Made by a program: the position numbers and the translations under genes. Positions 791 to 40,464 of a stretch of 59,334 nt of DNA are shown here, in pieces (the stretch's first letter is position 1; every line of letters starts with the position of its first letter). The stretch comes from Alloascoidea hylecoeti (lineage: Eukaryota): positions 1,241,794-1,301,127 of the forward strand of contig BCKZ01000005.1 of assembly GCA_001600815.1 (NCBI GenBank), in the 5' to 3' direction. Below the pieces are notes generated by a model, which was given only the letters and a program-made list of their open reading frames with translations, had not been told where the DNA came from and did no database searches.

Positions 791-944
791 TTCATCCAGC
801 TGTTAATACATATTTTTATCTACCTAGATTCACCAAGATTACGCAGAAATAGGGAGTGAGATAGCTAGCCTTGTTATTTTTCTCATTTGTTATTCCATAT
901 TATCATTGACAACCACGGAAGACAACCATTTAAGCAGTTGCAAT

Positions 945-2220
945 ATGTCCCTACACACAAATCTTAAGTCGAAAGCCGATTCTATGTCCGACGATCTCCC
1001 TTATGAAATATCTGAAATAATCTTCTTAGATTTGCTACTAAAGACTTTACTTAATTGTAGAAGTGTATCTAAAGCATGGAAACAAATAGCTGAAAATGAT
1101 ATGATAATGTATGGAAATCAAAGTTTCAAGAACAAAAATATTGGAAATATTATAATGATGATTCGGAAACAGATTCTTGATATGAATTGTATAAAGAACG
1201 TTCTCTTTTAGATTTGAATTGGAAAAATAATAAATTTACACGACATATATTAAAGGGTCATTCTAGCAAAACACTTTGTGTGAAATTTTATAAAAACTGG
1301 ATTATAACTGGTTCAAATGATTGGACAATAAGAATTTGGGATATTGAAACTTTTCAATGTTTAAGAGTTATAGGTGAACCAGATTTTGTGCTTTTATAAC
1401 AATTTGGTATATCAGATCTTTAGTTTCTAAACCAAGAAGTATCAACAGAGGAAATTGAGGATTTAATAGAAAATATCGATATCAACTTTCATCTGAGTGC
1501 TGTCGCATCTATCGATATTAATGATATATTTGATACTTCTTGTATGATTTGGAAACTACCAGATTCCAAACTAACAGATCGTCTGATGGCACCAACAGAA
1601 CCTGGTTATAGTTCTCATGCTAAAGTCGCTTTATCTAATGACTATATTGCGTGTTCTACCCATGATTCTATTGCGGTTTGGAAGACAAGTCTTGATAATT
1701 TAGAACATCAACTACAGGTTTATTTTAAATTCCGTTTTGGATTTGGTGATATTTGTGTTCATAATGGTATCATATACACTAAAGATGCAACCTGGAATTA
1801 TGAAAGTGTAATAAGTTCCTGGAATATTAAAACAGGTCGAATAAATATAATCGAATGAGATGCTTTACAGTAAGTGATCGATACTTAATAGTTACTGTTT
1901 ATGGCAAACTAACAGTTCGGGATTTACAATCAAATAAATTAATAAAGACTTTATCACATGACGCATATCCAGGAATTGGATTATATGTAGTCAATAACAA
2001 AATCATTTTTATTAATTGGAATTGTACTATTAAGATTTGGAATTTAAATGATATAAAATTATTTAAAGAATTTAAACTTTCAGAATATGAATTATATATG
2101 GAAGATGTTTATTCAATTGTGTTTGACTCGAAAAGACTAACTGTTTTTACTATGGATGATGATGTTGTTATTTATGATTTTACTGAAAATTTAAGGAAAA
2201 TATATTTAAAACATTTATGA
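945..2220 (+). pseudogene. F-box/WD40 protein pseudogene (copy 1)
   Basis: F-box LPYEISEIIF..LLNCRSVSKAWKQ followed by WD40 repeats (GH..CVKF..WIITGSNDWTIRIWD). Split over 4 ORFs by a 5-nt ATGAT duplication (~1100), a TGG>TGA and further frameshifts. Collinear with 53782-55042, ending YDFTENLRKIYLKHL. Confidence 0.85.
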
Positions 2221-4157: not shown

Positions 4158-4301
4158 TTATCAATTGCAAAAGATTTCTCGCTATAGGTAGTTTTCGTTA
4201 ATTATATGCTGACTAATCTTTATATCATGTGTCCCACCAAACAAATTAAAGGTGTATTCAATTCAATTTCTCAAAAAGAACAAATATATCAATACAATAT
4301 A

Positions 4302-5101
4302 ATGGAAATGGAAGAGATAGATATACCAAAGAAACTTCCTTCAAAAGTAGAATCTCCTGAGATCACATTGATAGAAAAGCTACAAGCTCGACAAAAACAA
4401 TTAGCAGGAGGTTCCAAAAATGTAATTGAATTAACAGCAGAGGAAGCAAAGGTTTTTGAAAAGTTTAACACAAAGCAGGCGATTATCAACAATCGTAAAA
4501 AAATTTCCAAAACTAATAAGACATCTCATAATTCTGATCGAAATGAGGGTACATCAGAAAATGTCGCTAAATCCACAGAAGAAGTGATATCCTACGATGA
4601 TTTAGAACCTACAACCAAAGTGTTTTTCTGGCTCTTAGACAATATGATGTATATTATCCCATTAGTATCAATTCACTTTGTACTTGATGTTTTCGTGTAC
4701 CAAGAATACAGAGAGGAAGTTGACTATAATGCTGTTTTTACTCGGGCACTTAAAGCGTTTATACGTAAGTTTAATAAAAATGTGAAATATACTAAAATAT
4801 TTTAGTTACTAATACTAATATATACATCTTTATGCCAGTTTTTATTACTATTTATGCTACAATTCATAAATATAGGGAGAATCCAATAATCAAGGCTTGT
4901 TTCACTATTATATCAATGGGGGCTGGATGTTATCTGGTCTACTGTGTAAATGAAATGGAATATTTTGCCAAATTATTCCAAGCAGCACCCATTGGAACAT
5001 TAATAGCTTATCTATATATGGAACTTGATTGGTATTTTAGTGCTCTTTCAGCGATAGTTATAGTTGGATGGACCTTATTTAATGATTATACTTTTTTTTG
5101 A
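4302..5101 (+). CDS. Conserved fungal multi-pass membrane protein of unknown function; exons 4302-4764, 4839-5101
   Basis: Two ORFs joined in frame by intron 4765-4838 (GTAAGT..TACTAAT..CAG). Hydrophilic N-terminus, then hydrophobic segments (IHFVLDVFVYQEY; QAAPIGTL). Confidence 0.7.
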
Positions 5102-9923: not shown

Positions 9924-12503
9924 TTAATAAAGTCGAGATCGTTTTCTTTTCCTCAATATCATTCCTGTAATTAACTCATTTAGCATCGAAGCCGATAATT
10001 TAATTCTCAAACTCACATTATAATGGTTTTTACTTATAGGCAGAGAAGAAGTTTCTAACGTCCGTATGAAGTCTTCCAAGCAAAAAATGGACTCATCTTT
10101 TTTCCCCTCATTAACAATAACCTGTGATAAATAGCTCAATCCATTACATATAGCGCATTTCATTTCTTCATCTTTTTGAGCACACTTAAGTTTTCTAGTT
10201 CCCACCCATGGGAGTTTAGATCGGATCAATGATCGATTATTTAATTCTTTCTGAACAGATTGTTGTAAATACGGTATAATCATTTCAACGATATCATGTG
10301 TGTAGTCCTGTTTGGCTGTGTTTACAAGAAGTTCATCATAAGCAAAAACTGGTTGATGATGATTGTGTTTATAATGAATGAAAGAATCAACGCAAAATGG
10401 AAGCCAAACAGGAGGTGCAAAATTAACAGCTTCGTTAAAATTGAACCCATGATTGAAACCAGCATGATAAACTTTTGGGCACGTAATAACAAATTCACCA
10501 GGTCTTTGATCAACCGCATATACACTAACACCAGATTTCATCAGCATCTTTGGATGATGTAATGTAGTTAATTGAAATAATAGGTCAGGCTGTTGTTGGA
10601 ATAATTCTGGAACAGTAAGCTTCATCACTTTTTCAAATTTTTCAGCATCAAAAGCAGGAATCCCATACCAGGTTTTCGTTTCTCCTAAATGTTGATAATT
10701 TGCACTATATGTATAATGATCTTCATTGTGCCAACAGAAGGCAGAAAAGATCATCCCGATATAAGACCACGGAACAGTCATTCCAGAGATATCGCTGCTG
10801 AAGTTTCGTAACAAGGATTTCTGAAGATGAGGTAAAACGTTAGGATTCCATGGATCTTTAGAATACTTGTCATCAGGTCTTGTTTTTATTGTGGGAAACC
10901 CCGATACCTGGACATTTGAATGTATATCAGCACCATATTCGACCTTTACAGTATCCTCTAAACTATCCACAAGCCTCCAAAATTCTAGTTCTATAGCGTT
11001 TTCTTGTTCATATAGTTTCTCAGGAAGTTGACTATTCAAATCCGGAATCTCTAGCCCAATTTTCTTGAAGTATTTATTTCTAAATTTATCACATTTTTGT
11101 TGAAATTTTGGTAACGTATAATCTCCTCCTGCTTCAAACCCAAATGATTCTGGTGAAGTAATGCACTTTTCACAATACCATTTTCCTTTTGGAATAGCGT
11201 CGAGTTTAGGTTCTAGACAATAGATATGAAACTCCTTATCACACTCATCACAAAGCATGAGATGATCATAATCTTCATCTTTTCCACAAATTTGACATCC
11301 GTCTTTAATTTCCTTCTTGGTATAATCAGTGTTATATTTGCGTTCATATTTCGAATAAGTATTACGTCCAGGTTTTATATTACTGTCTTTAATGTGAGTT
11401 TCAAACGGATGAATTATATCTAGATAGATTTTCCTTACTTCCTCTGCAGTTTCAAACTTGATTGGAATACCCAGTATTTTAGCAACATCTGCCCAACAGT
11501 TTTGAGTTTCTATCCGTTTTAATCCTCCATTAGCTGTTATAATTCTTTTAAGATGATATAGACTAATCCTATTACCTTCAATATAATGATGAGTGATCGT
11601 TTGAGGTTCAATAACATTGAGTTTTCTGCTACTATGAAACTTAACAAGTTTATCAAGTAATTGTATTTCTGCCCTGGAAACTGCACCCATTGTATTTATA
11701 TCTTGCTGTCTTGTAGAAAAAGAGAAATCCTTGTCCAAAACTAACGGTGGTTTCCAAGATGCCGGCGGTACGATTTTTAAAATTCCGTACTTCTCGCCCA
11801 GTTGTCTTACAATGTTGCTTTGTAAATATTGAATAGGGTCATGGAATTCATCCTCAGTAGGGAATAAAGTAGGAGCTTGGGGTATCCCAAAAGGCCTCGA
11901 ATCCAACTTTTTCGGTCTTCTATAGCAAGAAAGAGGTCCATCATAATCTTTTTCCTTTAATCGAACAGGATTGCAGTTATTAGCCAACGTAAATATCCTT
12001 TTGTTTTGACCTTCATCGTCGTCTTCTTCCTCTTCTTCCTCTTCTTCATTATCTTCGCTGTATTTATCGTCATCATCTTCTTCTTTTTCTTTATCTTCGT
12101 CTTTATCCTCATCATCCTCATCATCCTCTTCATCATCGTCGTCGTCTTTATCTTTATCTTCTTCTTTTTCATCATCTTCCGTTATAAACGATCTCGAAGA
12201 CCTTAGACTTCTTCTCGATCTTCTAATACCTACAGAACTTTCATGCTCGATCTCTGAGTTATTATCGGTGTTAAGTTCCGAAAAATCACGTCTCTCTCCG
12301 CCATCGTATTTTGGTGCTTGTAATCTCGAAGAATTAAGAAGTCTTTTTGATTTTCTATTTGCTATCTCATGGTGCTTCCGCGGACCTTCCACAAATCCCG
12401 AAGGATCTCTGGTAGTGTGATACCTTGATCCCCCAACGTTAACATTTTTGCTATTATTTGACCGGAATCTTGATTCATTTTTAAGAGATTGAGCTCTTCT
12501 CAT
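9924..12503 (-). CDS. JHD2: KDM5/JARID1-family H3K4 demethylase (JmjN-ARID-PHD-JmjC, degenerate C5HC2)
   Basis: JmjN APTLFPTEDEFHDP..YGILKIVPP; PHD CQIC..CDECDKEFHIYCL..WYCEKC; JmjC WHNEDH..YHAGFNHGFNFNEAVNFA; acidic N-terminal tract. Orthology to JHD2 versus Lid2/ECM5 is not resolved. Confidence 0.88.
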   Translation of the reverse strand: MRRAQSLKNESRFRSNNSKNVNVGGSRYHTTRDPSGFVEGPRKHHEIANRKSKRLLNSSRLQAPKYDGGERRDFSELNTDNNSEIEHESSVGIRRSRRSLRSSRSFITEDDEKEEDKDKDDDDDEEDDEDDEDKDEDKEKEEDDDDKYSEDNEEEEEEEEDDDEGQNKRIFTLANNCNPVRLKEKDYDGPLSCYRRPKKLDSRPFGIPQAPTLFPTEDEFHDPIQYLQSNIVRQLGEKYGILKIVPPASWKPPLVLDKDFSFSTRQQDINTMGAVSRAEIQLLDKLVKFHSSRKLNVIEPQTITHHYIEGNRISLYHLKRIITANGGLKRIETQNCWADVAKILGIPIKFETAEEVRKIYLDIIHPFETHIKDSNIKPGRNTYSKYERKYNTDYTKKEIKDGCQICGKDEDYDHLMLCDECDKEFHIYCLEPKLDAIPKGKWYCEKCITSPESFGFEAGGDYTLPKFQQKCDKFRNKYFKKIGLEIPDLNSQLPEKLYEQENAIELEFWRLVDSLEDTVKVEYGADIHSNVQVSGFPTIKTRPDDKYSKDPWNPNVLPHLQKSLLRNFSSDISGMTVPWSYIGMIFSAFCWHNEDHYTYSANYQHLGETKTWYGIPAFDAEKFEKVMKLTVPELFQQQPDLLFQLTTLHHPKMLMKSGVSVYAVDQRPGEFVITCPKVYHAGFNHGFNFNEAVNFAPPVWLPFCVDSFIHYKHNHHQPVFAYDELLVNTAKQDYTHDIVEMIIPYLQQSVQKELNNRSLIRSKLPWVGTRKLKCAQKDEEMKCAICNGLSYLSQVIVNEGKKDESIFCLEDFIRTLETSSLPISKNHYNVSLRIKLSASMLNELITGMILRKRKRSRLY

Positions 12504-23014: not shown

Positions 23015-25916
23015 TGTATTATGATTTATTGATAATGTATTTAATGATCTATAATTAATACTTGGAAACTTATCTAGATTGAATACTCTACTCAAAAAAG
23101 AGGAGCTCTTATTATACAATGATCTAAAAGTAATGTTCGTCGTCTTGAAATAATGAATGGTGATCAAACAAGATTAAATGAGGTAGGATGTATTTTTTTT
23201 TCTTCTACGGAATATTACTCATATTGATCTAATATACCACGTGATCTGAATTGAAATTTCAATATGGAATCCTGCAGCTGTTCATTCCACAGATTTGGTT
23301 TATCAACTGATGATTTTCATCATATGATAAATCTGCAAATAGTGGGTTCATGAACTGTTATTACAATTATGAAATTCTGGAATTCCTCATGAAAAAATAG
23401 AACGTTTACAAGGAGGTTTCTTAAGTTCTTCGCAACTTTAATAGGATGGACTCCATGGAGTAACGAATATAACGATGAATCGTCGACAATGCTAATTATA
23501 ATGTTTTCCTATATTATTGTTTTTGTGATGCCCCAGACATTCTTGATGGAGACTTTATTTTCCTGTTCATTGTATTGTAGTGCGTTTATATCATATTTTA
23601 TTAAGCTATTAAGTCACACGACAATTGTTCATGGGTTTTCCTATAGCTATGGCAGGAAGAGTACCTGAAGACTTTAGCTTTCGTTTCGGAGGATTCAATT
23701 TCCTGTCAGACCTTTACTTGACGGTTAAAACTTACAATATTAATATTTGTAGATACGTATTACGTAGTGATATTCTTCAAAAATATGAGGAGATTCTTAA
23801 CGATATAGCCCTTAAATTAATAATAATATTGTAAGAAAAGAATGTAAAATGCGTGAGGAAGTGAAATCCTATATCAACATCTGATATTTCCAATTCTACA
23901 AATCATTTTTATTTCTGTGGATTTGACGGGAATCTTTCCCGTAAGTCATAATTTTTTAATTTTTTTTTTAATTTTTTTTAATACATTTTATTATTTTAAT
24001 ACTGATCATCAATAGATCAGCAGCCTTGGTTTTCTCCAGGATATTGGAGAGTTTTCAAATATATCAAGCGATGAATATCGATCCCAAAATCCCTTTTGGA
24101 TTAACTGCTCTAAAAATTTCACATCTCATGATCAATCAACACAATCCGCGTGAATTTAAAGCACTAAAATATACCTATGATTTAGCGAATAATTACATTT
24201 AAAGATAAATACTATCATCATTAGGTTGAGGGCTTTTGTTACTAAGTATCATATAGCTATATATAACAAATTTATATCAATCCTAATATTATTAGCTGTG
24301 GTCAGGATGATGTAACTGTCAAACTATAGAGGATGTTTAAAAATTCTATTATCTGCTGAGTTTAATTGATCGAATATTAATAAGATAAAGGCATCTTAAT
24401 AATGGACATATATAAAGCTTTGGAAACTCTCATAGATCAATTGCAATGGTACATACAATGAAATATAACATATATAACTTACTTATCGCCAATCGCGATA
24501 TCGATCTGCCGCGGATAAAAATTGACTTAACCTTGACCTCAAATTCTCCAAAATGCAAACAGTTAACATTGCATATATTACATTAAACAGTTAAATGAAA
24601 CAATGTAAACAATGCATAGGTTAGTAGAACAGAAGCAAGTCGATCATGATAGCATGGAAGATGCGTCGTCTAGATCTAGTTCACAACATCGAGGAATTCC
24701 TTAAGCTTGTTGTGGATCGATATTTTAAAATTGGGAACACTTTGATCTCCCCAACATGATTCATATTTGCTCTCTTCTAGCTTAAGATATTATACCCAAG
24801 ATTAATATACAACTTTTAAAGTGGAGGACTATTAATATAACAGCTAAATAAAACACTTCAAACCTTGCAGAGGCCGGTAAAAATCAAAGCGCTTAAGACT
24901 CTCAAACATTACAAACGGCGTACATGAGCTCAAACTTTCACTTAATATGAATTGATTGTAAGTAGCCTTCAATGTTGTTGTTTTATATCTAAAAATAAGC
25001 ACCGGTACCCAAGGTTATAATTGGTTTCATTAATTTTGAGTGAGATTTATGGGCCGGATATAATTATTGAGCAACCTGAAAAATTTAGCCACAATTGCAA
25101 TTAATTGCAATGTTATAGCAATTATCTACAAGTTAATATTAATTTAAAATAGCAAAAGTTTAGAAACGTAAAGTCATCACCAACTAATTATAATGTAAAA
25201 TATGTAACTATCAATTTATAATGTTGTATGCCATAACTTTTAACCAAAATCTATAAATTTTACATTATAAATTATAATTACATGTGTCATCGAGACATGT
25301 GCAGCCGTTAAGCTAGGCAGTGCAATTTTATCCTTATAATTATATTTTTAACTAGTAACATTGAAGCTCTGGAATTTCATATTTGAGACAGCTTTGAATT
25401 ATATAATAGCTATTCATGCATCTAATATAGCTTATAATTATATACTTAGTGCAATTATAAGGCGATATAAACATTCTAAAGATAGATTATTCCTAGGATC
25501 AAAATATTGGACTTTGGGAGTATGATATCAACAAAAAATTATTTTATATAGTAAAACACAATATTGCAAAACATTTTCCTGTGTGTACATTTTTTCTGTT
25601 GTACTGTGCATCATTATGATCAGCAAATGAGATCATTCAAAGGTCACTCATTCATTGTAATTAGTTTTTGGAACCGAGGTGATTGTAGAGACATTTTTTA
25701 TCTATATATTAATCAAAAATTCCTTGGATTTCAACAGTTAAACTTTCAAATCTAGGTTATTATATATTTTTCAGTATCAAAAACTTTGCAATTGCTTAGC
25801 TTGTCATTCCTTTTTCTCAGTTTAATATTGCAACATTTTAAAATTATACATTCTTTTATAAATTAATTCTTCAATTCTTTAAATTATACTCTAATTATAC
25901 ATTTATCATTATCATC

Positions 25917-26819
25917 ATGTCATCTATGACCAAAAACTTGAGAAAAGCAGCCTCCAAAAGATCACTTGCTGCCATCTACAACTCTGATAGCGGAGCAGCA
26001 ACTGCACATGAAAACAATTTGAAAAATCTTAGAAATAGTTCAAATACAAATTTATCTGTTGGACATAATAACAATAATATGAATACTGGTTCACCTATTA
26101 TCCGAGTTACTTCAATTTCAAGACAACCTATTCCAGAACCAAAAAAATCTTCAGATTTACGAACAAGTTCACGATTAAATGTATCTTCTAATAGCCATTC
26201 TCATTCAGCATACACAACAACCGATTTTAGCGGGTTTGATGATAGTTTTGATAGTTATACTAACTACTCTGGATCAACGGCAGATACCGAACAAGATAAA
26301 ATGGCAAAAGCTGATTCATTTAAAGAAAAGGCAGATCAAGTTTTTGCCAAAGGTACTGATTTTCTAACTGCAATTGATTATTATAACAGAGCTTTAAGAA
26401 TGTGCCCACAATCATCAAAAAATAAAAGAGCAGAGCTTTTTGCATCTATTGGAAAATCATACTTAAATCTAAAACAATATAAACATGTCGTTGATTCCTG
26501 TTCAAAAGCAATCATGATGAATCCCCTCAATGTCGAAGCACTTCTTACAAGAGCAAGTGCAAATGATACTTTAGATACATGGGATTCTTTATATCAAGCA
26601 GTTCAAGATTATGAAGTTATTGCTGAAAATTCATCAGAATATACATTAGATGCCCAATCCCATCTTAATACTATTAGGCCTAGAATGCAAGAAAAGCAAG
26701 ACATTGCACAGAGGGAGATAATGATGAAATTGAGACAATTGCTACCAGAAACTCCACAAAGACCACAAAAGTTATCAAATAAAAGTTCTGGGATTTTAAA
26801 GATGTTCACTCAAAATTAA
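25917..26819 (+). CDS. TPR protein, TTC1-like
   Basis: Low-complexity N-terminus, then about three TPRs (AIDYYNRALRMCP; SCSKAIMMNPLNVEALLTRA) and an EIMMKLRQL tail. Confidence 0.7.
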   Translation: MSSMTKNLRKAASKRSLAAIYNSDSGAATAHENNLKNLRNSSNTNLSVGHNNNNMNTGSPIIRVTSISRQPIPEPKKSSDLRTSSRLNVSSNSHSHSAYTTTDFSGFDDSFDSYTNYSGSTADTEQDKMAKADSFKEKADQVFAKGTDFLTAIDYYNRALRMCPQSSKNKRAELFASIGKSYLNLKQYKHVVDSCSKAIMMNPLNVEALLTRASANDTLDTWDSLYQAVQDYEVIAENSSEYTLDAQSHLNTIRPRMQEKQDIAQREIMMKLRQLLPETPQRPQKLSNKSSGILKMFTQN

Positions 26820-28742
26820 ATTAACAGAAAACTGAAATCGTAACTGGCATGCGACAATTTTCTAGATGCTAAGCTTATTAAAGGGTTCTTTGGATATAAT
26901 ACAGTGTGTATTTTGAATTGTTCATCAAATTCTATAATTCTGGGACAATAATAAACGCATGTATATTTATTTATGTATCTATATTTTGTCCAACGGTCAC
27001 ATAAACACACACACTATCTTTCTCTCCTAATATTTCTAAAATGCTTCCAATTACTCGTTACTCATTATATTTGATTTAGTATGATATAACTTATGTATGC
27101 ACAACTCTATGGTACTATCATTAGCATTATTTTCTCTTTATCATCATCATCATCCTATGTTTATATTTCATATTAATTTGTGTTATCTTGTCTTGAGCTC
27201 ACTTCATTTCCTTTTAGTTTACTTCGTTATATATTATTCTATCTGTATTTTTAGTTAAATTATAATATTAAACGCTGTTGCCATTCTATAATTATTAATT
27301 ATAGGTTTATATTTACCATTATTTGTGGTGAAATTTACCAACGTTAACGTTAGTCGTCGACTCCTCGTTAATCAATAACTATAAGAGGCTGGCTATATTT
27401 AGATATTTGACACATTATATTACTTATTCCAGTATCACGATTCAATGAACTCACAATATAGTATGCCTTAAAATATATTTCTTTGATTGGCTTGACTCTA
27501 TTAGCTCGATCTAAAACTGCAATTTGCATTGTGTTTCATTATCACACAACTGATTAATTATAAAGTTGTAACTCAATTAACAGTTTACCATTGATGTGCT
27601 TATTGTTTCATTTAAAATTTGGTATACATTGCATTATAATATTGTTTATCTGTTTTATATATTCTTAAGTCGTATAAATATTATTATTAAATCACTCGTA
27701 ATGCATACATTTATCCAGCGGAGACCCTGAGTTTGGCACGCCAATACAAACATAAAATCGGCTTGTGAGATTGCAATAATCAATGCATACTCACAATATA
27801 TATTCGCTGCATAATTCACACACATTCGGAGTCTTTTCAGACACACCTTACAAAATAATGGTATTTTTGTTCATATTCAAAGAATGATTTATTAAGCCCT
27901 ACATTATGACAGATAACCGAGTAATAAGTTTTCACTTTACCTGTCACAAATTTGCTGCCCTAGATCTTTAATAATGTGTGCACGGCTAGACTGTCGGATG
28001 TGCACTCTTGAACAGGCGACAAGAGATCGTGCGACTTTTTGGCGTAACTGGTCCTAATTTACTTCTAACATATAATTATAACTTGTCACCAGTAAGGGAA
28101 GCATGCACAAATTAAACAGGGAATCTAATTTTTCAATAAAAATTGCATCTATTATGAATTTAAATATATATTGAAAATATTCACCGGTATATGAAATTAT
28201 GAATCGAATGAACTGGATTGTTCTATTAAAGGTTTACTGGTACAACGTTAATTAACGTGAACTATGCATGTTTGTAGGTAAACCGGATTATTATCATATA
28301 TAAGTATGTATATTATATAACGATTATTTTCCGGATACAAATATTTAGCAAAATTAACGTGTTTAGGTATAGAATTTATAATCGATTTATTATTGTTTAT
28401 AATACAGTTATTTCACTTAATTACGGCCATTCTGACTACTTATTATCGGGCATCCCCTGTTAGCTAATTTTCAGCCACATTATTACCCGTATGACCTAAT
28501 AATATTGATATTGGGGGAATATGGAACAATTTCGGGGGCCGAACTTGGCGGAATATTATCTTTAGAAATGACCGATAATCAGTAATAGTAACGGCCGCAA
28601 TTAAGTGAAATCACCGCAGGATCTTATCACGTGTACTTATTGAACCTAATCACAACATTAATATCTCTAATATTCTAAGAATATCCAACCACCTTTTACA
28701 AATATTCTTTCTCATCATTATTAATTACTTTAAAAAATTGAT

Positions 28743-29906
28743 ATGCGTTGGAATCTTGGCCTTATGGCCGGAGCAATAAAAGAAGCTAAACCAGAGAGTA
28801 TTGTTTTCATGGTTGGAGCAGGTATATCAACTGAAGCAGGTATACCTGATTTTCGATCTCCTGGAACTGGATTGTATTATAATCTAGCTAAATTAAATCT
28901 CCCATATGCCGAAGCAGTCTTTGACATTAACTATTATAAAAAATCACCAAAAGCATTTAATACATTAGCACTTGAATTATATCCAGGAAACTTCAATCCT
29001 ACAAAATTTCATTGTTTTATGAAAATCATTCAAGATAAAGGATTATTAAAAAGAATTTATACTCAAAATATTGATACTTTAGAAAGAATTGTTGGAATTG
29101 AATCAGATAAAATTATTGAAGCTCATGGATCATTTGCATCAAATCATTGTATTGATTGTAATACTGAAATGTCAGTTTCTGAATTTAAAAAACAGTTAAT
29201 AAATAAAGAAACAAATTATACACCTACTTGTCCTAAATGTAAAGGATTTGTTAAACCAGATATTGTATTTTTTGGTGAAGGCTTACCAAGTAAATTTTTC
29301 AGACAATGGGAAAAGGATAAAAATGATAATATTGATGTAGCTTTTATCGTTGGAACATCATTAACTGTTCATCCATTTGCTGAACTACCTTATGAATTAC
29401 CATCAACTACTACAAGAGCATTTATCAATAAAGTAGAAGCGGGTGGGTTTTCGATGAGGTCTATGGGAAGAGATCTTGTTATGATTGCAGAATGTGATTC
29501 TTGTATCCAAAGAATTGCTGAATTATGTGGATGGGATAAAGAGTTAAATGATATTTATAACAGTTTTAAGAATAAAAGTGAAAATACTAAAAAAGATGAT
29601 ATAAATGAACCAAAATCTACAAAGGAAGAACCAAAAAATTCTAAGTTATCAACTACTAAATTAAAGCCAAGAGAAGAAACCATTAATATTAATGATAAAG
29701 ATAAAAATAATGCTAATATTAAGGAAGTTAGCACTGATGTTATAGTTGATAACTTAACCAAAGAAGTTGAAGATTTAAAATTAACAAAAGAGACAAAAAT
29801 TAAAGATGAAAATAAAAAGGAAAATGAACCAAAACTAACAGTATCACATGGCAATGACAGTCCAACATCAAAAGCTTCAGAAGCAGAAACAGAAAAGAAA
29901 AAATAG
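28743..29906 (+). CDS. HST2: NAD+-dependent deacetylase, class I sirtuin
   Basis: GAGISTEAGIPDFRSPGTGLY, YTQNIDTLE, EAHGSF, CxxC..CxxC, KPDIVFFGE, GTSLTVHPFA. Confidence 0.93.
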   Translation: MRWNLGLMAGAIKEAKPESIVFMVGAGISTEAGIPDFRSPGTGLYYNLAKLNLPYAEAVFDINYYKKSPKAFNTLALELYPGNFNPTKFHCFMKIIQDKGLLKRIYTQNIDTLERIVGIESDKIIEAHGSFASNHCIDCNTEMSVSEFKKQLINKETNYTPTCPKCKGFVKPDIVFFGEGLPSKFFRQWEKDKNDNIDVAFIVGTSLTVHPFAELPYELPSTTTRAFINKVEAGGFSMRSMGRDLVMIAECDSCIQRIAELCGWDKELNDIYNSFKNKSENTKKDDINEPKSTKEEPKNSKLSTTKLKPREETININDKDKNNANIKEVSTDVIVDNLTKEVEDLKLTKETKIKDENKKENEPKLTVSHGNDSPTSKASEAETEKKK

Positions 29907-30332
29907 TATGAGTTAATACAATAGCAACTTTAATTTGGGATATTTTGATTTTGGATAGTTAATTGAAAATTATTATATTAATTACATTAATAATGAAGCT
30001 ACTACAGTTATATGTCTTTGTATTTAACGTTTCTGGTTCACAATTTTGCTTGTATAACATGTAAGGCCTTATAAAATTTACTTCATCCATAAAAATTAAT
30101 CTTGACTTTAAATGGTAGGTAGTCAGTTATATTATCTAAAATCAAATTTAACTTTTGTAACTAAATGGATTCTATTATAATCATAACTCATTCTAAATTT
30201 CATTATCAATCATATTACCATAATATCATTCGGTTTTATTACAATCAAACAATAAGAAAATAATAACATGTTTTTTTGGATAGATTATCGTAAATCATAA
30301 AATTGTTATCTTACATTAATAGTTAACAAATA

Positions 30333-31661
30333 TTATAGACTAACTTCAACCAAGTAATCTAACCTCACTTGACAACCTTTAAATACAATAAGCTCATCAT
30401 TTATAACTCCTGCCTTATCAGCCAGTGCCCAATATGAATCATATCCTTTTGGTGGTTTGGAAGATCTAGCGGTAGTAGGATAGAATGGATTTCCTATAGC
30501 AACACTGGCTAAAAATAAATAAACATGTGGTTTTTTAGTTGAATTTTGAGCCCAATATAAACCATCACAATATTGTAAAGATTTTGTTGATTTATTAGCA
30601 AAATATAAACCATGACCAAAAAGAGCACCAGCTTTTTGACCTGGTGATTGAGATGGTAATAATAAACCTTTTGATAAAATTGATAATAAATTAGCAGTTC
30701 TTGTACCATGCCATAAAGTCATAACATTTGAAATTTCGTTTGAACATTTTAAAAATGGTTCTTGCTGAGATTTTAAAGCAACTTTATAAATATTTGTAAC
30801 TTTTGATTCTGGAATACCATTATATTGATGATTTGATGCTTTTGATTCTTGATATTTTTTAGAAATTTCATCAATTATAGATTTATCATTAATATGTTCA
30901 ATTTCAACATCAAATAATTTTTCAACTTCTTCTTTTGAAGAGGAAGTTTCTTTAGGATCAGGAATTTTTGGATTTTTTTCTAAATCTTCTAAAAGTTTTA
31001 ATGTATCATATAATGCATTACAAATATTCATTTGACATGTCCAATTATTCAAATTATATATCAATGTTTCTTGATCTCTTGCATTTTTCACTTTATTTGG
31101 AATAATAAAATAATATTCATTATTTAAATCAGATAATTTTTCTTCATTTTTAATTATATCATCTAATAATGGTTTAATTTCATTTAAAATATCAACAGCT
31201 TTATTAACACCTTCTTTACTAATAACTCCTAATGGTGTTTTAAAGAGTCCATCTACTGAATCAAATTCAATATTTGTATTGCTTGTAATATTATGAATAT
31301 TCTCAACACTTAATGCTTCAATTAAATGTTTTGATTCATCATCTTTATATACAATTTGTTCTAATGCGATATCCATTGCATTTTTTTTACAATTAATAGT
31401 ATTTCCATTATCTGAAGTAGATTCAATAGTAGCTTTTAGCATTGCTTCCCGATATCCTTTATTCTTCTTTTGTCTTAATAATGTTTCATAATTACGCCTA
31501 CCACCAGTTTTCTTAGAAATAGCTCCCTTAGACCCTACACGTCCATAACGAATGGTAATAGTACCAAGCGCAGATGGATCACGCTCATCATATCTTAATT
31601 CATAGAATTTGTTGTTGTTTGCTTTTGTGTCAAACTTGATAAGCATTTTATGGTCTGACAT
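30333..31661 (-). CDS. Poly(ADP-ribose) polymerase, compact WGR-regulatory-catalytic type resembling bacterial PARPs
   Basis: WGR domain (NNNKFYEL..RYGRVG..LLRQKKNKGY), helical domain (TPLGVISK..LSDLNNEYYFIIP), catalytic H-Y-E triad (LWHGT; FGHGLYFA..KSLQY; NDELIVF..Q.RLDYLVEV). 442 aa, intronless, intact. Confidence 0.92.
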   Translation of the reverse strand: MSDHKMLIKFDTKANNNKFYELRYDERDPSALGTITIRYGRVGSKGAISKKTGGRRNYETLLRQKKNKGYREAMLKATIESTSDNGNTINCKKNAMDIALEQIVYKDDESKHLIEALSVENIHNITSNTNIEFDSVDGLFKTPLGVISKEGVNKAVDILNEIKPLLDDIIKNEEKLSDLNNEYYFIIPNKVKNARDQETLIYNLNNWTCQMNICNALYDTLKLLEDLEKNPKIPDPKETSSSKEEVEKLFDVEIEHINDKSIIDEISKKYQESKASNHQYNGIPESKVTNIYKVALKSQQEPFLKCSNEISNVMTLWHGTRTANLLSILSKGLLLPSQSPGQKAGALFGHGLYFANKSTKSLQYCDGLYWAQNSTKKPHVYLFLASVAIGNPFYPTTARSSKPPKGYDSYWALADKAGVINDELIVFKGCQVRLDYLVEVSL

Positions 31662-31716
31662 GGTTAAAGTTTTTTAGAAGAGCTCTGGAGATTTAAGATT
31701 TAAGCGTTTTTCTATT

Positions 31717-31744
31717 GAAATTTGAAATTTGAAATTTGAAATTT
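31717..31744. repeat. (GAAATTT)x4 tandem repeat upstream of PARP
   Basis: Four exact heptamers 56-83 bp upstream of the PARP ATG. Confidence 0.8.
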
Positions 31745-32196
31745 GGACATTATTTGAATATTGGATTTGGAGAAGTATTTATCAAAATTATGTTGCATTT
31801 TATCTATTCGACTAATATTTATTTTTTGTGCTAAAGTTTGACTCGTTTTGATGCACTATACTACCACGTGCCATAATATTAAGCTAGAGATTTGTTTAAT
31901 GTTAAAAGCAAGTCGGAGAGAACTCCGAAAGAATAACTCTCTTCATTGATGTTATTTTAATTTACATAATCTATTAAAATCTCATACACATATGAAATAC
32001 ACTGTAATGTTATACATTAAGCCCATGAGTAAACCGGCATTTCCAATCTCAAAGAGGGTCAAGTAAATTGAACCAATCTTTTCACCAGGATAATGATTGA
32101 GATGGCCATCATTCAAGTTTGAATTGAAATTACTCTCATCATATTTGAAGCTAAGTTGATTATCACCTGGAGTACCCTCATCACGAAAAAACATAA

Positions 32197-32556
32197 CTTG
32201 CAGAATTCGTAAGAGACTTGTCTAGTAAAGAAGAAAATGAAAGAATTTTATCGAAAACTAACGCTTTAGAACCAAAATGAAACAAGTTAAGGGGAAAACC
32301 CATACTCGAAATAAATACGATCAAAAAAAGAATAGAAAAGAAGAATTTTTCCAACTTTGAATTAAACAAGGAAAGCGTGGAAAATTGTCTGGAGAATTTA
32401 ATAGGATCAGTATCTTTTCTACATAATATAGTGAATTCTCTTTTTTGTGATAAAATAGTGGAATATACTTTGGTGTGAAGCAATGAATTTGATGCTTTAT
32501 CTGTCAATTTATTAGATAATGAATTCCGGTATGATTTCTTTATCAATTATAAATAA
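32197..32556 (+). pseudogene. Decayed unknown gene convergent with the F-box gene (partner, copy A)
   Basis: 119 codons LAEFVRDLSSKEENERILSKTNALEPK*..V*SNEFDALSVNLLDNEF with only two TGA stops. Homologous to minus-strand 55140-55680 and partly to 49100-49220. Confidence 0.5.
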
Positions 32557-33140
32557 ACCAATTAAATATTCATGTTCTTTTCCATCTGGTAAAACTTTTA
32601 TCACTGTATTTGATTGTAAAGCCAAAATTTTTAGTTTGTTGTAGTTACTAGTAAATGTGTATTGATCCTTTACCATAATTGGTCCTATTATATGAAATTG
32701 AAATTCTTGGATCTTTTGACCAGTTTCAATATTCCAGGAAGTTACTGCTGTAAATGCAGTACGTACTATATAGTATCATTATGAATGGGAACGCTACTGA
32801 TGCAACTTCCTCTCACACGGAATTGAAAATTAAACTGTAGTTCTCCAAACACCAATATAATCATAACCACAACATACAATATAATCATTTACAAACAGAC
32901 ATTATTTACAAGTGATGAAGAATGAGTGCCTCGTGGCATGAAACGGTGTATTGGTTTAAAATCTGGTAGATTCCAAATTATACAAGACGCATCCCATGAA
33001 ACAGAAACCAGATATTTTTCATTATATCCATACAATTAACACCAGCGGAATGAAAGTTGATATCGGTACGTTTTGTTAATTCAAATATTTCCAATTCTGT
33101 TAAATATGTTATTGGAATCCGAGAATCACCTAATACATTT
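32557..33140 (-). pseudogene. F-box/WD40 family internal fragment
   Basis: NVLGDSRIP..TDINFHSAGVNCMDI..SWDASCIIWNLPDFKPIHRF..SWNIETGQKIQEF, with frameshifts; matches 53930-55042. Confidence 0.8.
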
Positions 33141-33364
33141 GGACCCTAAAATGATTATAAAATTAAAGATTGGAGTAAAAAAACTCACCTTTACCAGTTA
33201 TCGATATAAATTATATTATATTTTCATTTCAAACTCAAATGAATTATTCATATAAGACTTTAAAAAGATGACGATAATGAAAGATAGAAAACGGAATTTA
33301 TTTTATTATAAATTTGTTAACTAATTCTTAAAATTCATCGTGAATTGTTATTTACCGAGTAGAA

Positions 33365-33869
33365 ATGTTATTAATGGAATTCCAAACCACGGTATGGGAC
33401 CCGGAACGAAGAACAGTCGCTAACTTTAACGTCCCCCGAATGCCTGTAAGGCCATCAGGGAATTTTTTAAGAAGTTGTTGAGTAAATATGAAAATCTAAA
33501 ATCCATTGCAGAAGATGTGCAGATGACGAACCAGGAAAAAGGGATCTAACTATAATAGATCAAATCACATCTTTAAGAAATGAGATTAAAGACGGATTTA
33601 CACATATGGACTCAGAGTTGAGTTCATTAAAAACAAGCCTTATACGGGTGGAGGATACCCAAAAAAAGAAATGCTTGTCCGATTTTAATAAGTCCTTCAA
33701 TTTTGGAATAAAGCGTTCCTCTTTAGAAGGTTATAGACCTGTGGGGTATTTAGATGAAGAGGGAACATTTGTCATGCCTTTAATGGTAAACTGGAAATTG
33801 ACTGATCTAAATTCCATTGAAAGATTAATTCCAATGAACGGGAGTTTGAGTTCGTTTGGGGTTGGATAG
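33365..33869 (+). pseudogene. Coiled-coil + Mug135/DUF1773-like gene, frameshifted and 3'-truncated
   Basis: MLLMEFQTTVWDPERR.. / KKLLSKYENLKSIAEDVQMTNQE / DLTIIDQITSLRNEIKDGFTHMDSELSSLKTS.. across two frameshifts. 33594-33827 is nearly identical (inverted) to 52060-52292. Confidence 0.6.
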
Positions 33870-34718
33870 AACCTTTGAAGATCAGGATGGGGCCTATATG
33901 AACTTTGGCGCATCCGATTATACCCGAATAAAAAAAAAATTTCCCACTAATAATGACTGCTGAAAAATGGTGTTAAAGCACTGAGTCGGAGAAAAAAACT
34001 CACTCCACAACAGAAAACACAAAATTGTACATTGAAAAATCATTATCAGAATTACGAGATTAAATAGATTTTAGTGATAGTATTAAATTTAATTTATATT
34101 AGTTGTTGGTTAAGAAAATGGTGGTTGAAAATATCAATTATGTTCCATGTGGTATCTACGTACCTGACTGCGTTGCCAGTGTTGTGGTTCATTTATATAA
34201 ATATTAGGCCATGTGATAAAGAATACAATCGCATTAATGATTAATTATGTATTCAACTTTTTGATAAAAATGATAATGCAAATTTTGCAAAAGGTCCTAA
34301 TATATTAATTTCCCAGCACTTAATTCCAAATAATCATTTGATGGACAACCATAATTTTGACTAATTGGTACATTAAATTCATCATATGGTACAACAATCC
34401 AAAGTCTATGAGAGTTGGTAAACCAAATATTGAGATCTTAAGAGAAGATTTTTCAATAAAAGAAATATTTGAATTAATAGAAGATTACCATTTAGAATTT
34501 CATTTGGATAGTTTTGCCTGTATGTGTATATTTTAGGATGCATTTTTATAGATATTATCGTAGTAAGTTAAAATGCAGAAAACATCTAAATTTGCTGCAC
34601 ATGAAGTGTACTTTACGATAATTTCCATCTCAGATTAGATTTTATTGATAGTATTTAGAATAATTTGTGTTTGTTGATGGTAACGATGTTGCGAGATGAG
34701 TGGCGGCGGGGTAAAGAA

Positions 34719-36975: not shown

Positions 36976-39659
36976 CTACTTTTTAGTAGTAAAAGAGGAA
37001 ATCCAATTCTTTAAAAATTTTAAATTAATTCCATGATTATAATATTTTCTATCTTCATCCCATATAATCATATCCATTTCAAGTCTCATTGAATTTAAAT
37101 CACCAAATTCTGGAAATATTCTTGTTTTTTCAATCCCTTTATTTTTTTTATTTAAAATCATCATATTTATATTACCAAATTTATTTGGAAATAATTTATT
37201 TAAAAAAAATAAATTAACTAATTTTGATTTAAATTTTTGAAAATTATTATTATTATTATTATAAAAATTTAAAAAAAGATAAAATTTAAATTTTGAATAT
37301 AATAAACAAATTAAAAAAATAAAAATTGGTCCATAATATGATAAAAATAATGAATTATTCCAACCATTTTTTAAAAAAATTGGAAATCCTGAAAAAATTA
37401 ATAATAATAAATTACAAATTAATGTAAACCAAGCTAAATATGGTTGAAAATAATAATTTAACCAAGAAATTTCAATTGAAGATGATAATCTAATATTTTT
37501 ATCTTTTGTTAAATAATAATATCTTAAATATGATAATGACATTCCAATCCAAGTAATTAACCAAGAATTTGATATAAAACAAATTAAATGTTGTAAAATA
37601 ATTTCTAATGGGAAATGAAGAGCAATAAATGAAACAAATGATAAACACCAACAAATGAAAATAGCAATATATGGTATACCATTTGGGAAACATTTTGATA
37701 TAAATTTTGGTAAATGACCCATTGTTGATAATGAATAAAGTATTCTTGATGCAGAATAAAGTAATGATGATGAATTACAAATTGCAAAAACTGCTAATAT
37801 AGCATTTATAACTGCTCCACCTTTACATAAACCAGCTGAATTTAATGCAACAACCCATGGTGAATGATTACATTTTGAAAATGATGTCCAGTTAATATAA
37901 CCAGTTGAACAACCATTTTGATCATTAATTTCAACAAAACTACCTTCTTTAATAATTGTTGTTGATGATAAAGTTGTATTTTTTAAAATATACCGAAATA
38001 ATCTTAAATCACCAGAATAAATATTTAAACTTACTAAAAAAATTGCTAAAATATAAAAAATAACAATTCTCCAAAATATTAATTTTGTTGTTGATGGTAT
38101 AACTTTTCTTGGATTTCGAATTTCTCCAACACTAATATAAATTAAATCAGTACCTAAATAACAATAAATAGTTATTGAACAACCTAATAAAATTGATAAA
38201 AAATTCCCCATTGAACCATTAATAATTGGTAAATTATTTTCATTTGAAGTTAAATTTAAATTTTTAAATGATAAATCAAAATTTGGTTGAAATAATCCAT
38301 AAATTAATTTTTTTTCAAAAATTGATTTTGAAGAATCCCAATATTTAAAACCAATTTCATTATTTAATGGACTACTACCAGTATTTAAAGTAATCATAAA
38401 TATAATTAATGAAATCATTGAACCAAATACAAAAATCCCAAAAAATGTATTAAAAAAAGTTGTTAATCTTAATGATATTGCATTAATTGAAATATTTAAC
38501 CATATAATAAATGAAATCCATGCACCACTTGTTGGATCAGGTTTACCTAATTGTGGATAATAACTCATTATTATACAAACTCCTATAATTTCAGCAGATA
38601 TTGCTAATGAATATGCTAAAAATCCACATATACCAAAACCTAATGATAAATGAGGTGATACAAATCTTGATACATGTGATGCAACACCACCGCCAACAGG
38701 ATATAAAGTAACTAATTCTGAAAAACCAGATAATGTTGAAAATAATAAAAAACCAATAATTATAAATGATAATAATGTACCAAATGGTCCAGCAATTGTA
38801 AAAACTTGTCCAGAAACAAAAAATAAACCAATTCCAAAACATCCTGAAAATGAATATAATTTTATAAAATTTGATTGGAAATTTCTTAAAGTTTCATGAT
38901 TATTTGGTGGTATATTTGGATTATTAAATAATTTTTCAATTATTAATGATTGATTATTATTTAAATTTAATTCTTTATCATTTATTAAATTATCATTTGT
39001 TAAAATATTTGTTAAATTATTATTTGATAAAATATTTGATGATTTCATATTTGAATTAATTGAAATTTCATCAATTTTATTAATAATATTAATAGTAGTA
39101 GTATCATTTGAATTTTTATTTATATTATGAAATAATTTATTTATTTTTAATCTTGATCTTAAACCATTATCATTAATTAAATTTTCTTTATCATTATCAT
39201 TTTCTTTAGAATTTTTTTGTTTATTTTTATTTATTGTTGAATCATTTAAATGATTTATTGATGATTTAATTAAAACTCCTTTAATTCTACTAACACCAAA
39301 ACCTTTTAATTTTTTTAATGGATATTTTCTTTCATCTAATGTAATTATTTCATCATCATCAAAATTATCATCATCATTAAAATCATTTTCAATAAAATTA
39401 TTTATATTATTATATTCATTAATTTTTTTAAATTCTTGTTGTTTTGATTCATTATAAATATTATCAGGAGAATTTATAGTTGTAAAATAATTTCCATACA
39501 TTTTACTTTGATTTTGTTTAATTTTAATTTTTTTTAATTCACTATAAATTCTTGATCTTAATTCTTCTTCTTTTAAAACTTGTTTATTATATTTTTCAAA
39601 ATCTGTTAATTCATATTCTTCATTAATTTCATCATCAGTATTTGAATTTATTAATAAAC

Positions 39660-39719
<60 letters not shown>

Positions 39720-40464
39720 CATTATTGTTTAAAACTATATCATCTGCTTTAAGTCTTTGTAGTAATACTGATTCTTTTCTACTTAAATTATTTGAACTTG
39801 TTTCAGGTATATCATCATCATTAAAACCATTAATTGTATTATTTGTATTATTACTTTCATCTAATATTTTAGTTAAATAAAATCGATCATTAATAAGTTG
39901 TTCATGAATTTCAGGATCATTTAGCATATATTCAATATTATCATTATCATTATCATCTATTGATATTGATGGAATTTCATTCTTTATTATTAAATTATTA
40001 TTTTTATTTAAATATTCAAGAAAAACTCCTCCTCCTTGTGATTGAGATTTTGATTTTTGTAATTCATTAATATCATTGTTATTTTCGGAATAATTATCAG
40101 ATTCATCAATACATATACTATCATTTGATATATTTGTATTTAAATAAATATGTTTTATACCATCTTCATCAATACTTATTCTTGTATTTTCAAATTCATT
40201 TTCTGTATTATTATCATTTTCAAAATCTGTTATTGAAGTTTGATTCTTAAAATTATTTGTGTGTTTAATCTCAGGAAATAAAGATCTTTTCTTTGAATTG
40301 ATTATATTATCATTTTCTTTATCCTTATCAATATTATAGGAAGTGCCTTGTATTGGTAACCGAGCCTCATTAATATCAAGATTAATATTAAGATGATGAT
40401 AATCTTCTATGTCATCATCATTATCGTTAGGATGAACCACTGTCTGGGGTCCACCATTTATCAT
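36976..40464 (-). CDS. SSY1: SPS amino-acid sensor (APC permease fold with a long Asn-rich N-terminus)
   Basis: About 530-aa N-terminal extension, then GIGLFFVSGQVFTIAGPFG, EIGFKYWDSSKS..YGLF.P.FDL, GEIRNPRKVIP and SPWVVAL. Confidence 0.8.
39661..39726. repeat. (AAT)n microsatellite encoding poly-Asn in SSY1
   Basis: About 20 ATT units. Confidence 0.9.

Follow-up and report, generated by a model that had tools for sequence, protein, structure and literature searches.

Introduction

Pyl1 of the yeast Yarrowia lipolytica was reported in 2025 to be a functional poly(ADP-ribose) polymerase (PARP), which modifies itself and Ku70/80 with true poly(ADP-ribose) (PAR) chains, is induced upon telomerase loss and has an in vitro activity that is independent of added DNA (Sepsiova et al., NAR 2025; PMC12412787). 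In the same report, a TBLASTN search (E<1e-6) of 1219 reference genomes of Saccharomycotina returned 44 hits in 42 species, which fall within the Alloascoideales, Dipodascales and Phaffomycetales; yeasts yielded no PARG, ARH3 was detected in just five species, and the enzyme that removes the modification was termed enigmatic. Here we describe a short PARP gene of the budding yeast Alloascoidea hylecoeti, located in a stretch of 59,334 nucleotides of contig BCKZ01000005.1 (assembly GCA_001600815.1). This whole stretch is called the window below, and all coordinates are counted from its first letter. The closest full-length relatives of the encoded protein are found on large bacteriophages and giant plasmid-like elements, and we consider, with a probability of roughly 70%, that the gene pool of such elements was the source from which PARP genes of this type were transferred into fungi.

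Bacterial PARPs of the architecture WGR-PRD-CAT were probably acquired from eukaryotes according to reviews (PMC8120803, PMC5966428), and PARP-type ADP-ribosyltransferases (ARTs) have been noted in phages (PMC9503650). The enzyme itself is therefore of a known kind: PARPs of yeasts were described in 2025, and those of phages at the sequence level. In the main and supplement text of PMC12412787 the terms "horizontal" and "phage" are absent (its Fig. S10 is represented by the legend only), and the accessible text of a 2026 review of fungal ADP-ribosylation mentions neither Pyl1, Yarrowia nor horizontal transfer. Our literature searches, which had bioRxiv supplements outside their scope, found no published link between yeast PARPs and phage or plasmid PARPs.

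Results

The PARP gene is an uninterrupted, intronless open reading frame (ORF) that encodes 442 aa (Table 1). A second in-frame ATG (31644-31646) corresponds to residue 6 and would give an alternative of 437 aa, the form in which the protein is entered in our protein collection (P0002). A Pfam scan at curated cut-offs recognized a WGR domain (1.4e-9; 38.3 bits, cut-off 22), the regulatory domain PARP_reg (3e-10; 40.7 bits, cut-off 26.8) and the PARP catalytic domain (residues 265-417; 3.7e-25; 89.1 bits, cut-off 26.7), and revealed no BRCT, zinc-finger or any further domain in the 442-aa protein. In the WGR motif, which reads Y39-G40-R41, the tryptophan is replaced by tyrosine, and G40 and R41 are nearly invariant in an alignment of 38 rows (A1). 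The catalytic triad consists of H318, Y353 and E423, all of them invariant both in alignment A1 and in a 13-row alignment (A3). His and Tyr align with the PARP1 catalytic fragment, which was matched at 2e-22 in a search of the PDB, and Glu aligns in a second stretch. An AlphaFold model built on 38 sequences (pLDDT 83.6, pTM 0.77) matched the PARP1 and PARP2 chains of complexes with DNA breaks; these chains comprise the WGR domain, the helical domain (HD) and the ART domain (Foldseek E 1e-24, TM about 0.6). By its domains, triad and architecture, the protein is a WGR-HD-ART PARP of the DNA-damage type with an H-Y-E triad. An earlier sequence-only reading of the window had proposed exactly such an intact WGR(YGR)-helical-catalytic PARP of 442 aa with a full triad and without BRCT or zinc fingers, and the ORF, the Pfam scan, the alignments and the model all bear this out. 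The short catalytic tail that it described fits the Pfam match to PF00644, which spans just positions 6-147 of the 199 of that model, and between the catalytic Tyr and Glu the protein has about 25-30 residues fewer than PARP1.

Table 1. Positions of the PARP gene, its domains and its catalytic codons in the window
Feature	Position	Strand	Remarks
PARP gene, intact	30333..31661	-	442 codons plus stop at 30333-30335
WGR domain, residues 6-73	31443..31646	-	PF05406; motif YGR
Helical (regulatory, HD) domain, residues 95-229	30975..31379	-	PF02877 on residues 141-219; model helices 95-127 and 149-229
ADP-ribosyltransferase (PARP catalytic) domain, residues 265-442	30336..30869	-	PF00644, PDB PARP1 fragment, Foldseek
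Catalytic His318	30708..30710	-	codon CAT; aligned to HG of PARP1; invariant
Catalytic Tyr353	30603..30605	-	codon TAT; aligned to PARP1; invariant
Catalytic Glu423	30393..30395	-	codon GAG; aligned to PARP1 (second stretch); invariant

Pyl1 resembles the Alloascoidea protein in its N-terminal WGR domain, its C-terminal H-Y-E PARP domain, the lack of BRCT and zinc-finger domains, its intronless gene and its sparse distribution in Saccharomycotina. The two differ in that PARP_reg is recognized by Pfam in the Alloascoidea protein and not in the Yarrowia proteins, and in that a coiled-coil/basic insert of 160-200 aa, typical of the Yarrowia proteins, is absent from the Alloascoidea protein (442 aa compared to 575-631 aa). 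The protein is homologous to the Pyl1 class, but it has neither the insert architecture of that class nor a place in an exclusive Yarrowia clade (p-AU 8.4e-6, see below). The PARPs of the Klebsiella phages vB_KpM_FBKp34, KP13-16 and 05F01 (Stephanstirmvirinae) and of uncultured relatives have 428-429 aa, the same three domains without an insert, and the motifs NIHNITS.T.I and KSL.YCDG in common with the Alloascoidea protein; their genes lie beside those for nucleotide metabolism (NrdD/NrdG) in virulent phage genomes of 137-147 kb, whereas the Alloascoidea gene is chromosomal in a eukaryote. The highest overall identity was found for PARPs of megaplasmid-like elements (clusters P0003 and P0007; 56% for P0003, mean of 61% in the ART domain), which have the same architecture and lie beside genes for NAD synthase, pilins and NrdD on elements of 29-35% GC, similar to the base composition of the Alloascoidea gene. 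HaPARP of Herpetosiphon aurantiacus and CdPARP of Clostridioides difficile CD160, both with PARP activity in vitro, have the WGR-PARP_reg-PARP order too (PMC8120803, PMC5966428); the likeness lies in the architecture as described. Since the chromosomal bacterial homologues found here are just 23-29% identical over the full length, the Herpetosiphon type named in the earlier reading would at best apply to the broad family; the nearest kin are enterobacterial phages and AT-rich giant plasmid-like elements. PARP1/2/3 and the fungal fPARP1 (PrpA/NPO) share the WGR-HD-ART core fold and the triad at just 20-25% identity, and the Alloascoidea protein differs from them by the lack of BRCT, zinc-finger, SAP and WWE modules and by a shorter C-terminal part of the ART domain. 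It is not a canonical fPARP1 (BRCT-WGR-PRD-CAT), as it has no BRCT domain and no long relative closer than 1.1e-11.

A word-indexed protein search with the Alloascoidea protein gave 629 matches, and an exhaustive HMMER search gave 3264 representatives outside eukaryotes at E<=1e-3, 300 of them at <=1e-30, nearly all of 400-450 aa. The identities fall into a top tier of 43-57%, a second tier of about 40-42% and a broad tier of 31-39%, and the bacterial and phage tier scored 1e-66 to 1e-43, compared to about 1e-22 for canonical eukaryotic PARPs. A search for longer proteins revealed no fused long form (8 weak matches, best 1.1e-11). The named members of the top tier are fungal, namely Yarrowia sp., Trichomonascus vanleenenianus, five genera of Kickxellomycotina and Hesseltinella. 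Two Yarrowia sp. proteins (P0026 and P0029) scored 2.6e-124 and 3.8e-123, which lies beyond the TBLASTN cut-off of E<1e-6 applied in PMC12412787; Yarrowia-type proteins are 50-52% identical over 60-65% of the length of the Alloascoidea protein. In Smittium angustum, two paralogous short PARPs (P0039 and P0045; BB558_000514 and BB558_000522) share a contig of 96,901 nt, which points to a local duplication.

The best full-length matches (56-57%) are not fungal-named; they are the unnamed clusters P0003 and P0005. Members at 90% identity of the best-match clusters come from Klebsiella phage vB_KpM_FBKp34 (annotated as poly [ADP-ribose] polymerase), Klebsiella phage KP13-16, K. pneumoniae, Serratia sp. 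and Shigella flexneri. A tblastn search of 50,697 phage records found 8 matching records, among them three Klebsiella phages of 137-147 kb (48-49% identity over 100% of the protein) and Xanthomonas and Stenotrophomonas jumbo phages (32-34%). The Alloascoidea protein also matches the phage family profile phrog_23333 (PHROG) at 1.8e-46 over residues 6-440, and with this full-length match and an architecture of the insert-less 420-440-aa kind it is a member of the phage/plasmid short PARPs. An alignment-based scan of one genome each of 185,579 prokaryotic species found 55 loci, the best of which (39%) lies on a 3.4-kb contig of a metagenome-assembled genome, and the full-length chromosomal homologues, mostly of Armatimonadota, Planctomycetota and Bacillota, are just 23-29% identical; a single-protein scan of bacterial genomes gave no match.

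As for the carriers of these relatives, the phage FBKp34 gene lies near NrdD/NrdG, and members of the 40-42% tier stand on IMG/VR contigs beside RIIA/RIIB, DNA polymerase, ligase and helicase genes. Three metagenome loci (L068:1-21302, L069:1-21302 and L070:1-21299, with the PARP gene at about 10001-11305) encode proteins that are 93%, 93% and 71% identical to P0003. They belong to contigs of 105, 208 and 866 kb, have 29-35% GC and a coding density of about 80%, and carry genes for NAD synthase, an NMNAT-like protein, HisRS, PilS/bundlin type IVb pilins, a PilV-shufflon-like protein, Dps, HNH nucleases, NrdD and ankyrin repeats. The contigs that carry cluster members of the clade labelled Shigella/Serratia reach 1.37 Mb, and annotated genes of the wider family (31-35%) occur on megaplasmids of 0.8-1.17 Mb in Pseudomonas, Variovorax and Vibrio (26 records). 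The base composition does not fit the Shigella and Serratia labels, and this clade is not enterobacterial chromosome. The gene content suggests a plasmid nature of the AT-rich elements, of which no PARP locus was found in the 50,697 phage records and the 185,579 species genomes; L068-L070 may be an uncharacterised giant plasmid or element. Taken together, the close kin of the yeast gene are, to judge from their surroundings, mobile elements, that is, large phages and giant plasmid-like elements.

In FBKp34 (L001:6001-12034) and in the plasmid-like elements alike, no more than a few kb separate the PARP gene from genes of the anaerobic ribonucleotide reductase; the plasmid-like loci have NAD+ synthesis genes in its vicinity as well. 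This hints that the PARPs of mobile elements are linked to nucleotide and NAD+ metabolism.

The position of the Alloascoidea protein was evaluated in maximum-likelihood (ML) trees, which contain no fPARP1 sequence. In a FastTree of 136 rows, rooted on seven canonical eukaryotic proteins of the PARP3/WWE type, the Alloascoidea protein branches as sister (92) to all named fungal sequences, which form one clade (100), and the two together lie inside successive non-fungal clades (82, 97, 98 and 99). A careful IQ-TREE analysis (75 rows, 440 columns, LG+C20+F+G4 PMSF) placed the Alloascoidea protein with the fungi at 86/92 and supported the 16-row fungal clade at 100/99 and the enclosing phage/plasmid clades at 98/95, 100/94 and 100/100. 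The sister relationship had a support of 92 (SH-aLRT) in a quick tree and of 94 in a 52-row tree, which repeated the nesting with seven canonical eukaryotic outgroups; the canonical eukaryotic PARP3-type rows stand across a branch of about 2-3.4 substitutions per site. These results agree with the earlier assignment of the gene to a bacterial or phage type and not to the canonical BRCT-bearing fungal type, since its closest full-length kin are phage and megaplasmid-like proteins and its clade is nested among them. The background assumption of that reading, that budding yeasts lack PARP, is no longer sound, as homologues occur in 42 species of Saccharomycotina (PMC12412787) and the Alloascoidea protein groups with the Yarrowia Pyl1 clade (86/92).

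Approximately unbiased (AU) tests were performed on four constrained topologies. Placing the Alloascoidea protein with the 23-row phage/plasmid clade (test A) lowered the log-likelihood (lnL) by 1.98 (p 0.396, not rejected), and joining all 17 eukaryotic rows (test B) lowered it by 15.1 (p 0.165, not rejected). In contrast, joining the six Saccharomycotina rows (test C; 75, p 2.8e-5) and joining the Alloascoidea protein with the four Yarrowia-type rows (test D; 39.4, p 8.4e-6) were both rejected. Because of the latter two results, the fungal short-PARP genes do not follow the species tree, and simple orthology between the Alloascoidea gene and Yarrowia Pyl1 does not hold. The protein does nest with other fungal PARPs (86/92), as would be expected under vertical inheritance, but these PARPs themselves violate the species tree.

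The helical domain separates the Alloascoidea protein from its fungal relatives. At the site between residues 165 and 177, all 16 rows of the fungal clade have 42-200 aa (164-200 aa in the four Yarrowia-type rows), all 58 non-fungal rows have 7-21 aa, and the Alloascoidea protein has 11. In the helical domain, it is 56% identical to the plasmid-like group, 51% to the Klebsiella-phage group and 46% to the 16 fungal rows; the corresponding values are 61%, 58% and 56% in the ART domain and 54%, 52% and 49% overall. In the WGR domain, identity to the fungal group (46.0%) is on a par with that to the plasmid-like group (46.9%), and only the phage group is higher (50.2%). Because of the 11 aa at the insert site and the closer regional identity to the plasmid-like and phage groups, the yeast gene evidently retains the insert-less phage/plasmid architecture. 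A pattern search found basic K/R clusters (KKRKR, RKRK, KRK) in the fungal-clade insert (alignment A3, columns about 195-350) in 13 of the 16 rows, and these resemble a nuclear localisation signal that would have been acquired once the gene had entered eukaryotes.

The Alloascoidea gene would thus stem from an entry of its own or else form the first, still unmodified offshoot of the fungal lineage. We regard it as possible, at somewhat less than even odds, that the gene is a separate, insert-less acquisition distinct from the Pyl1 lineage, so that budding yeasts, whose ancestral PARP was lost, would have regained PARylation at least twice from the phage/plasmid pool, with the Pyl1 lineage later gaining its insert resembling a nuclear localisation signal and spreading among Yarrowia, Trichomonascus, Kickxellomycotina and Mucoromycota. 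A single ancient entry into fungi, after which the Alloascoidea gene kept the insert-less form and fungus-to-fungus transfer or differential loss followed, is, within the same overall reading of a transfer into fungi, a tentative alternative to which we give a slightly lower chance. It would account for the sister position to the 16-row fungal clade in the ML trees (92, 92, 86/92 and 94) and for some catalytic-domain residues common to the Alloascoidea protein and the fungi, but the support for this position never reaches the starred level and the alternative placement is hardly worse (p-AU 0.40), the fungal-clade insert is absent, the protein is closer to the phage and plasmid rows in every region but the WGR domain, and a wrong placement could result from its long branch and AT-biased composition. 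The moderate 86/92 link, the long branch and the alternative at 1.98 lnL are compatible with one entry and with two.

The window itself is a fungal, budding-yeast-like chromosome segment of about 30% GC, with genes for IRE1, SUA5, a Jhd2-like JmjC/ARID/PHD protein, ISY1, a Sir2-family protein, cytochrome c and a fungal-specific transcription factor, and ordinary fungal genes lie on both sides of the PARP gene. The stretch is present in four public sequencing runs from three studies. In two isolate studies, which may be the source of the assembly, a 7,895-nt contig spans 25000-31744 with zero differences, and in a wood decay metagenome run, which represents an independent strain, a 6,344-nt contig spans 25401-31744 with two single-nucleotide polymorphisms (SNPs) and 0 differences inside the PARP ORF, and joins the TPR gene, the sirtuin gene and the entire PARP gene. 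The junction between the Sir2-family gene and the PARP gene, for which an assembly chimera had been considered, is therefore genuine, as contigs of three studies span it, including that of the SNP-bearing metagenome strain. A contaminant or an assembly artefact might be suspected only from the foreign-looking kin and from some database relatives with misleading organism labels; however, with single contigs spanning the TPR, Sir2 and PARP genes in the runs of all three studies, a read-contig depth across the PARP locus that is even with the flanks, and a host-like codon usage, we regard this possibility as negligible.

The codon usage of the PARP gene was compared with that of the host. Its GC content at third codon positions (GC3) is 0.11, and its relative synonymous codon usage (RSCU) correlates with that of pooled host genes at r 0.93; for 12 individual host genes, r ranged from 0.54 to 0.95, with 11 of them within 0.82-0.95. 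The loci of candidate donors are equally AT-rich (r 0.95 between the host pool and the L069 pool), so codon usage is uninformative on a foreign origin. The host-like usage shows integration; it neither dates the event nor supports or contradicts a transfer.

The adjacent sirtuin, which matches human SIRT2 at 2.6e-81 and yeast Hst2 at 4.5e-77, is an ordinary orthologue of SIRT2/Hst2, and its best-ranked phage match has just 34% identity over 57% of the protein. Its co-transfer with the PARP gene was considered and rejected.

Several observations weigh against a transfer from the phage/plasmid pool into fungi. The codon usage of the gene is fully host-like, without a foreign trace. When the open frames of the flanks (at least 40 aa) and the other frames of the window (at least 85 aa) were scanned, relics of PARG, macrodomain, ARH or phage genes were absent, and thus neither co-transferred genes nor relics were found beside the PARP gene. 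In the trees, four nameless rows (P0034, P0035, P0049 and P0051) were counted as fungal by position and architecture, the branch to the outgroup is very long (1.7+1.7), that of the Alloascoidea protein is long (0.77) with a moderate link to the fungal clade, and moving the protein to the phage/plasmid clade costs little. Of the AU tests, that of all eukaryotic rows was not rejected, and the groups of tests C and D, taxonomic as they are, were tested after the tree had been seen. Finally, the derivation of bacterial PARPs from eukaryotes in the literature (PMC8120803, PMC5966428) implies a deep history both ways.

Some of these points would suit the reverse direction, in which the short PARP is an old, vertically inherited fungal (eukaryotic) paralogue that was mostly lost, and in which phages and plasmids captured a fungal gene. 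The all-eukaryote constraint (p-AU 0.165), the host-like codon usage, the reviews just cited and the presence of the gene in three fungal phyla or subphyla (Saccharomycotina, Kickxellomycotina and Mucoromycota) are compatible with it. We nevertheless regard it as clearly improbable: the free trees put the fungi several well-supported nodes inside non-fungal clades, the family is far more diverse and more deeply branched outside eukaryotes (300 representatives at <=1e-30, path lengths >2 per site), the fungal rows contradict the species tree, the gene is sparse in yeasts (42 of 1219 reference genomes; PMC12412787), and canonical eukaryotic PARPs score far below the bacterial/phage tier (about 1e-22 compared to 1e-66 to 1e-43). 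Horizontal acquisition, as the sequence-only reading had proposed, remains the best reading because the Alloascoidea protein sits in a clade nested among phage and megaplasmid-like proteins. What that reading does not gain is a formal proof of direction (AU p 0.165); with so long an outgroup branch, we infer the direction from topology and diversity and not from a significant test.

The accessory neighbours of the PARP gene had been described as decayed, and this did not hold, as all that the flank and window frame scans returned was a WD40-like stretch split over frames (31985-33145; weak, E 0.0095), together with an intact gene for cytochrome c. A tRNA scan found no tRNA gene in the window. 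ORFs of at least 100 aa cover just about 43% of the window, and several host genes are split over frames, namely an F-box/WD40 gene in three frames (828-2217, plus strand), a DUF7719 gene in two (4188-5098, plus strand) and the WD40-like stretch (minus strand). Over 25000-33629 the window is in agreement with contigs of three studies, so the split WD40-like stretch is not an assembly error specific to the window; pseudogenes, introns and shared errors are all possible for the split genes. In each of the four runs, the read-contig depth at 33822-34222 rises to about 18x the level of the flanks, as expected of a dispersed repeat, which may be a solo long terminal repeat. An amino-acid permease ORF of 1162 aa (36976-40464, minus strand) has a long Asn/Asp-rich low-complexity extension as its N-terminal half, with a local GC of about 19-20% and a GC3 of 0.05.

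Discussion

The activity of the Alloascoidea enzyme, its dependence on DNA and its targets are inferred here by homology with PARP1-3 and Pyl1. The WGR domain would bind DNA ends or breaks, this binding would lift the block that the helical domain places on the active site, and the enzyme would then use NAD+ to poly-ADP-ribosylate itself and proteins at DNA ends, e.g., Ku70/80. Alternatively, the intact protein might be no DNA-activated PARP and act as a mono-ADP-ribosyltransferase, a constitutive enzyme or an NAD+ consumer; the NAD+-depleting defence raised in the earlier reading would be a conjecture. The incomplete match to PF00644 (6-147 of 199) with its shortened Tyr-Glu segment and the Y for W in the WGR motif would fit such a role, as would the in vitro activity of Pyl1 independent of added DNA and the lack of an eraser, with none found in the window and no PARG reported in any yeast (PMC12412787). 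We consider this unlikely, given that Glu in the H-Y-E triad is a hallmark of PARPs that elongate their chains, that the relative Pyl1 makes true PAR chains (PMC12412787) and that HaPARP and CdPARP of the same architecture are active PARPs (PMC8120803).

Overall, the PARP gene of A. hylecoeti belongs to a lineage that is otherwise found on large bacteriophages and giant bacterial plasmids. Horizontal transfer from this pool into fungi would have been followed by full adaptation to the host, with the gene now forming a single-gene island with host codon usage, integrated beside an HST2-like sirtuin gene. New in this analysis are the nesting of fungal enzymes of the Pyl1 class in a radiation of mobile elements, their departure from the species tree, and an insert-less, phage-like yeast copy for which a grouping with Yarrowia is rejected.

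Ascomycetous yeasts were long believed to lack PARP, and a phage/plasmid lineage gives the sparse distribution in yeasts a testable explanation. If bacterial PARPs came from eukaryotes, the enzyme would have made a round trip from eukaryotes to bacteria and phages and from there into fungi. If the direction proposed here is true, the fungal genes would clearly exemplify how eukaryotes domesticate a DNA-damage signalling enzyme borne by phages or plasmids, and this in cells for which no PAR eraser is known. Conversely, genetics and biochemistry in Yarrowia may reveal the function of the uncharacterised PARPs of phages and megaplasmids.

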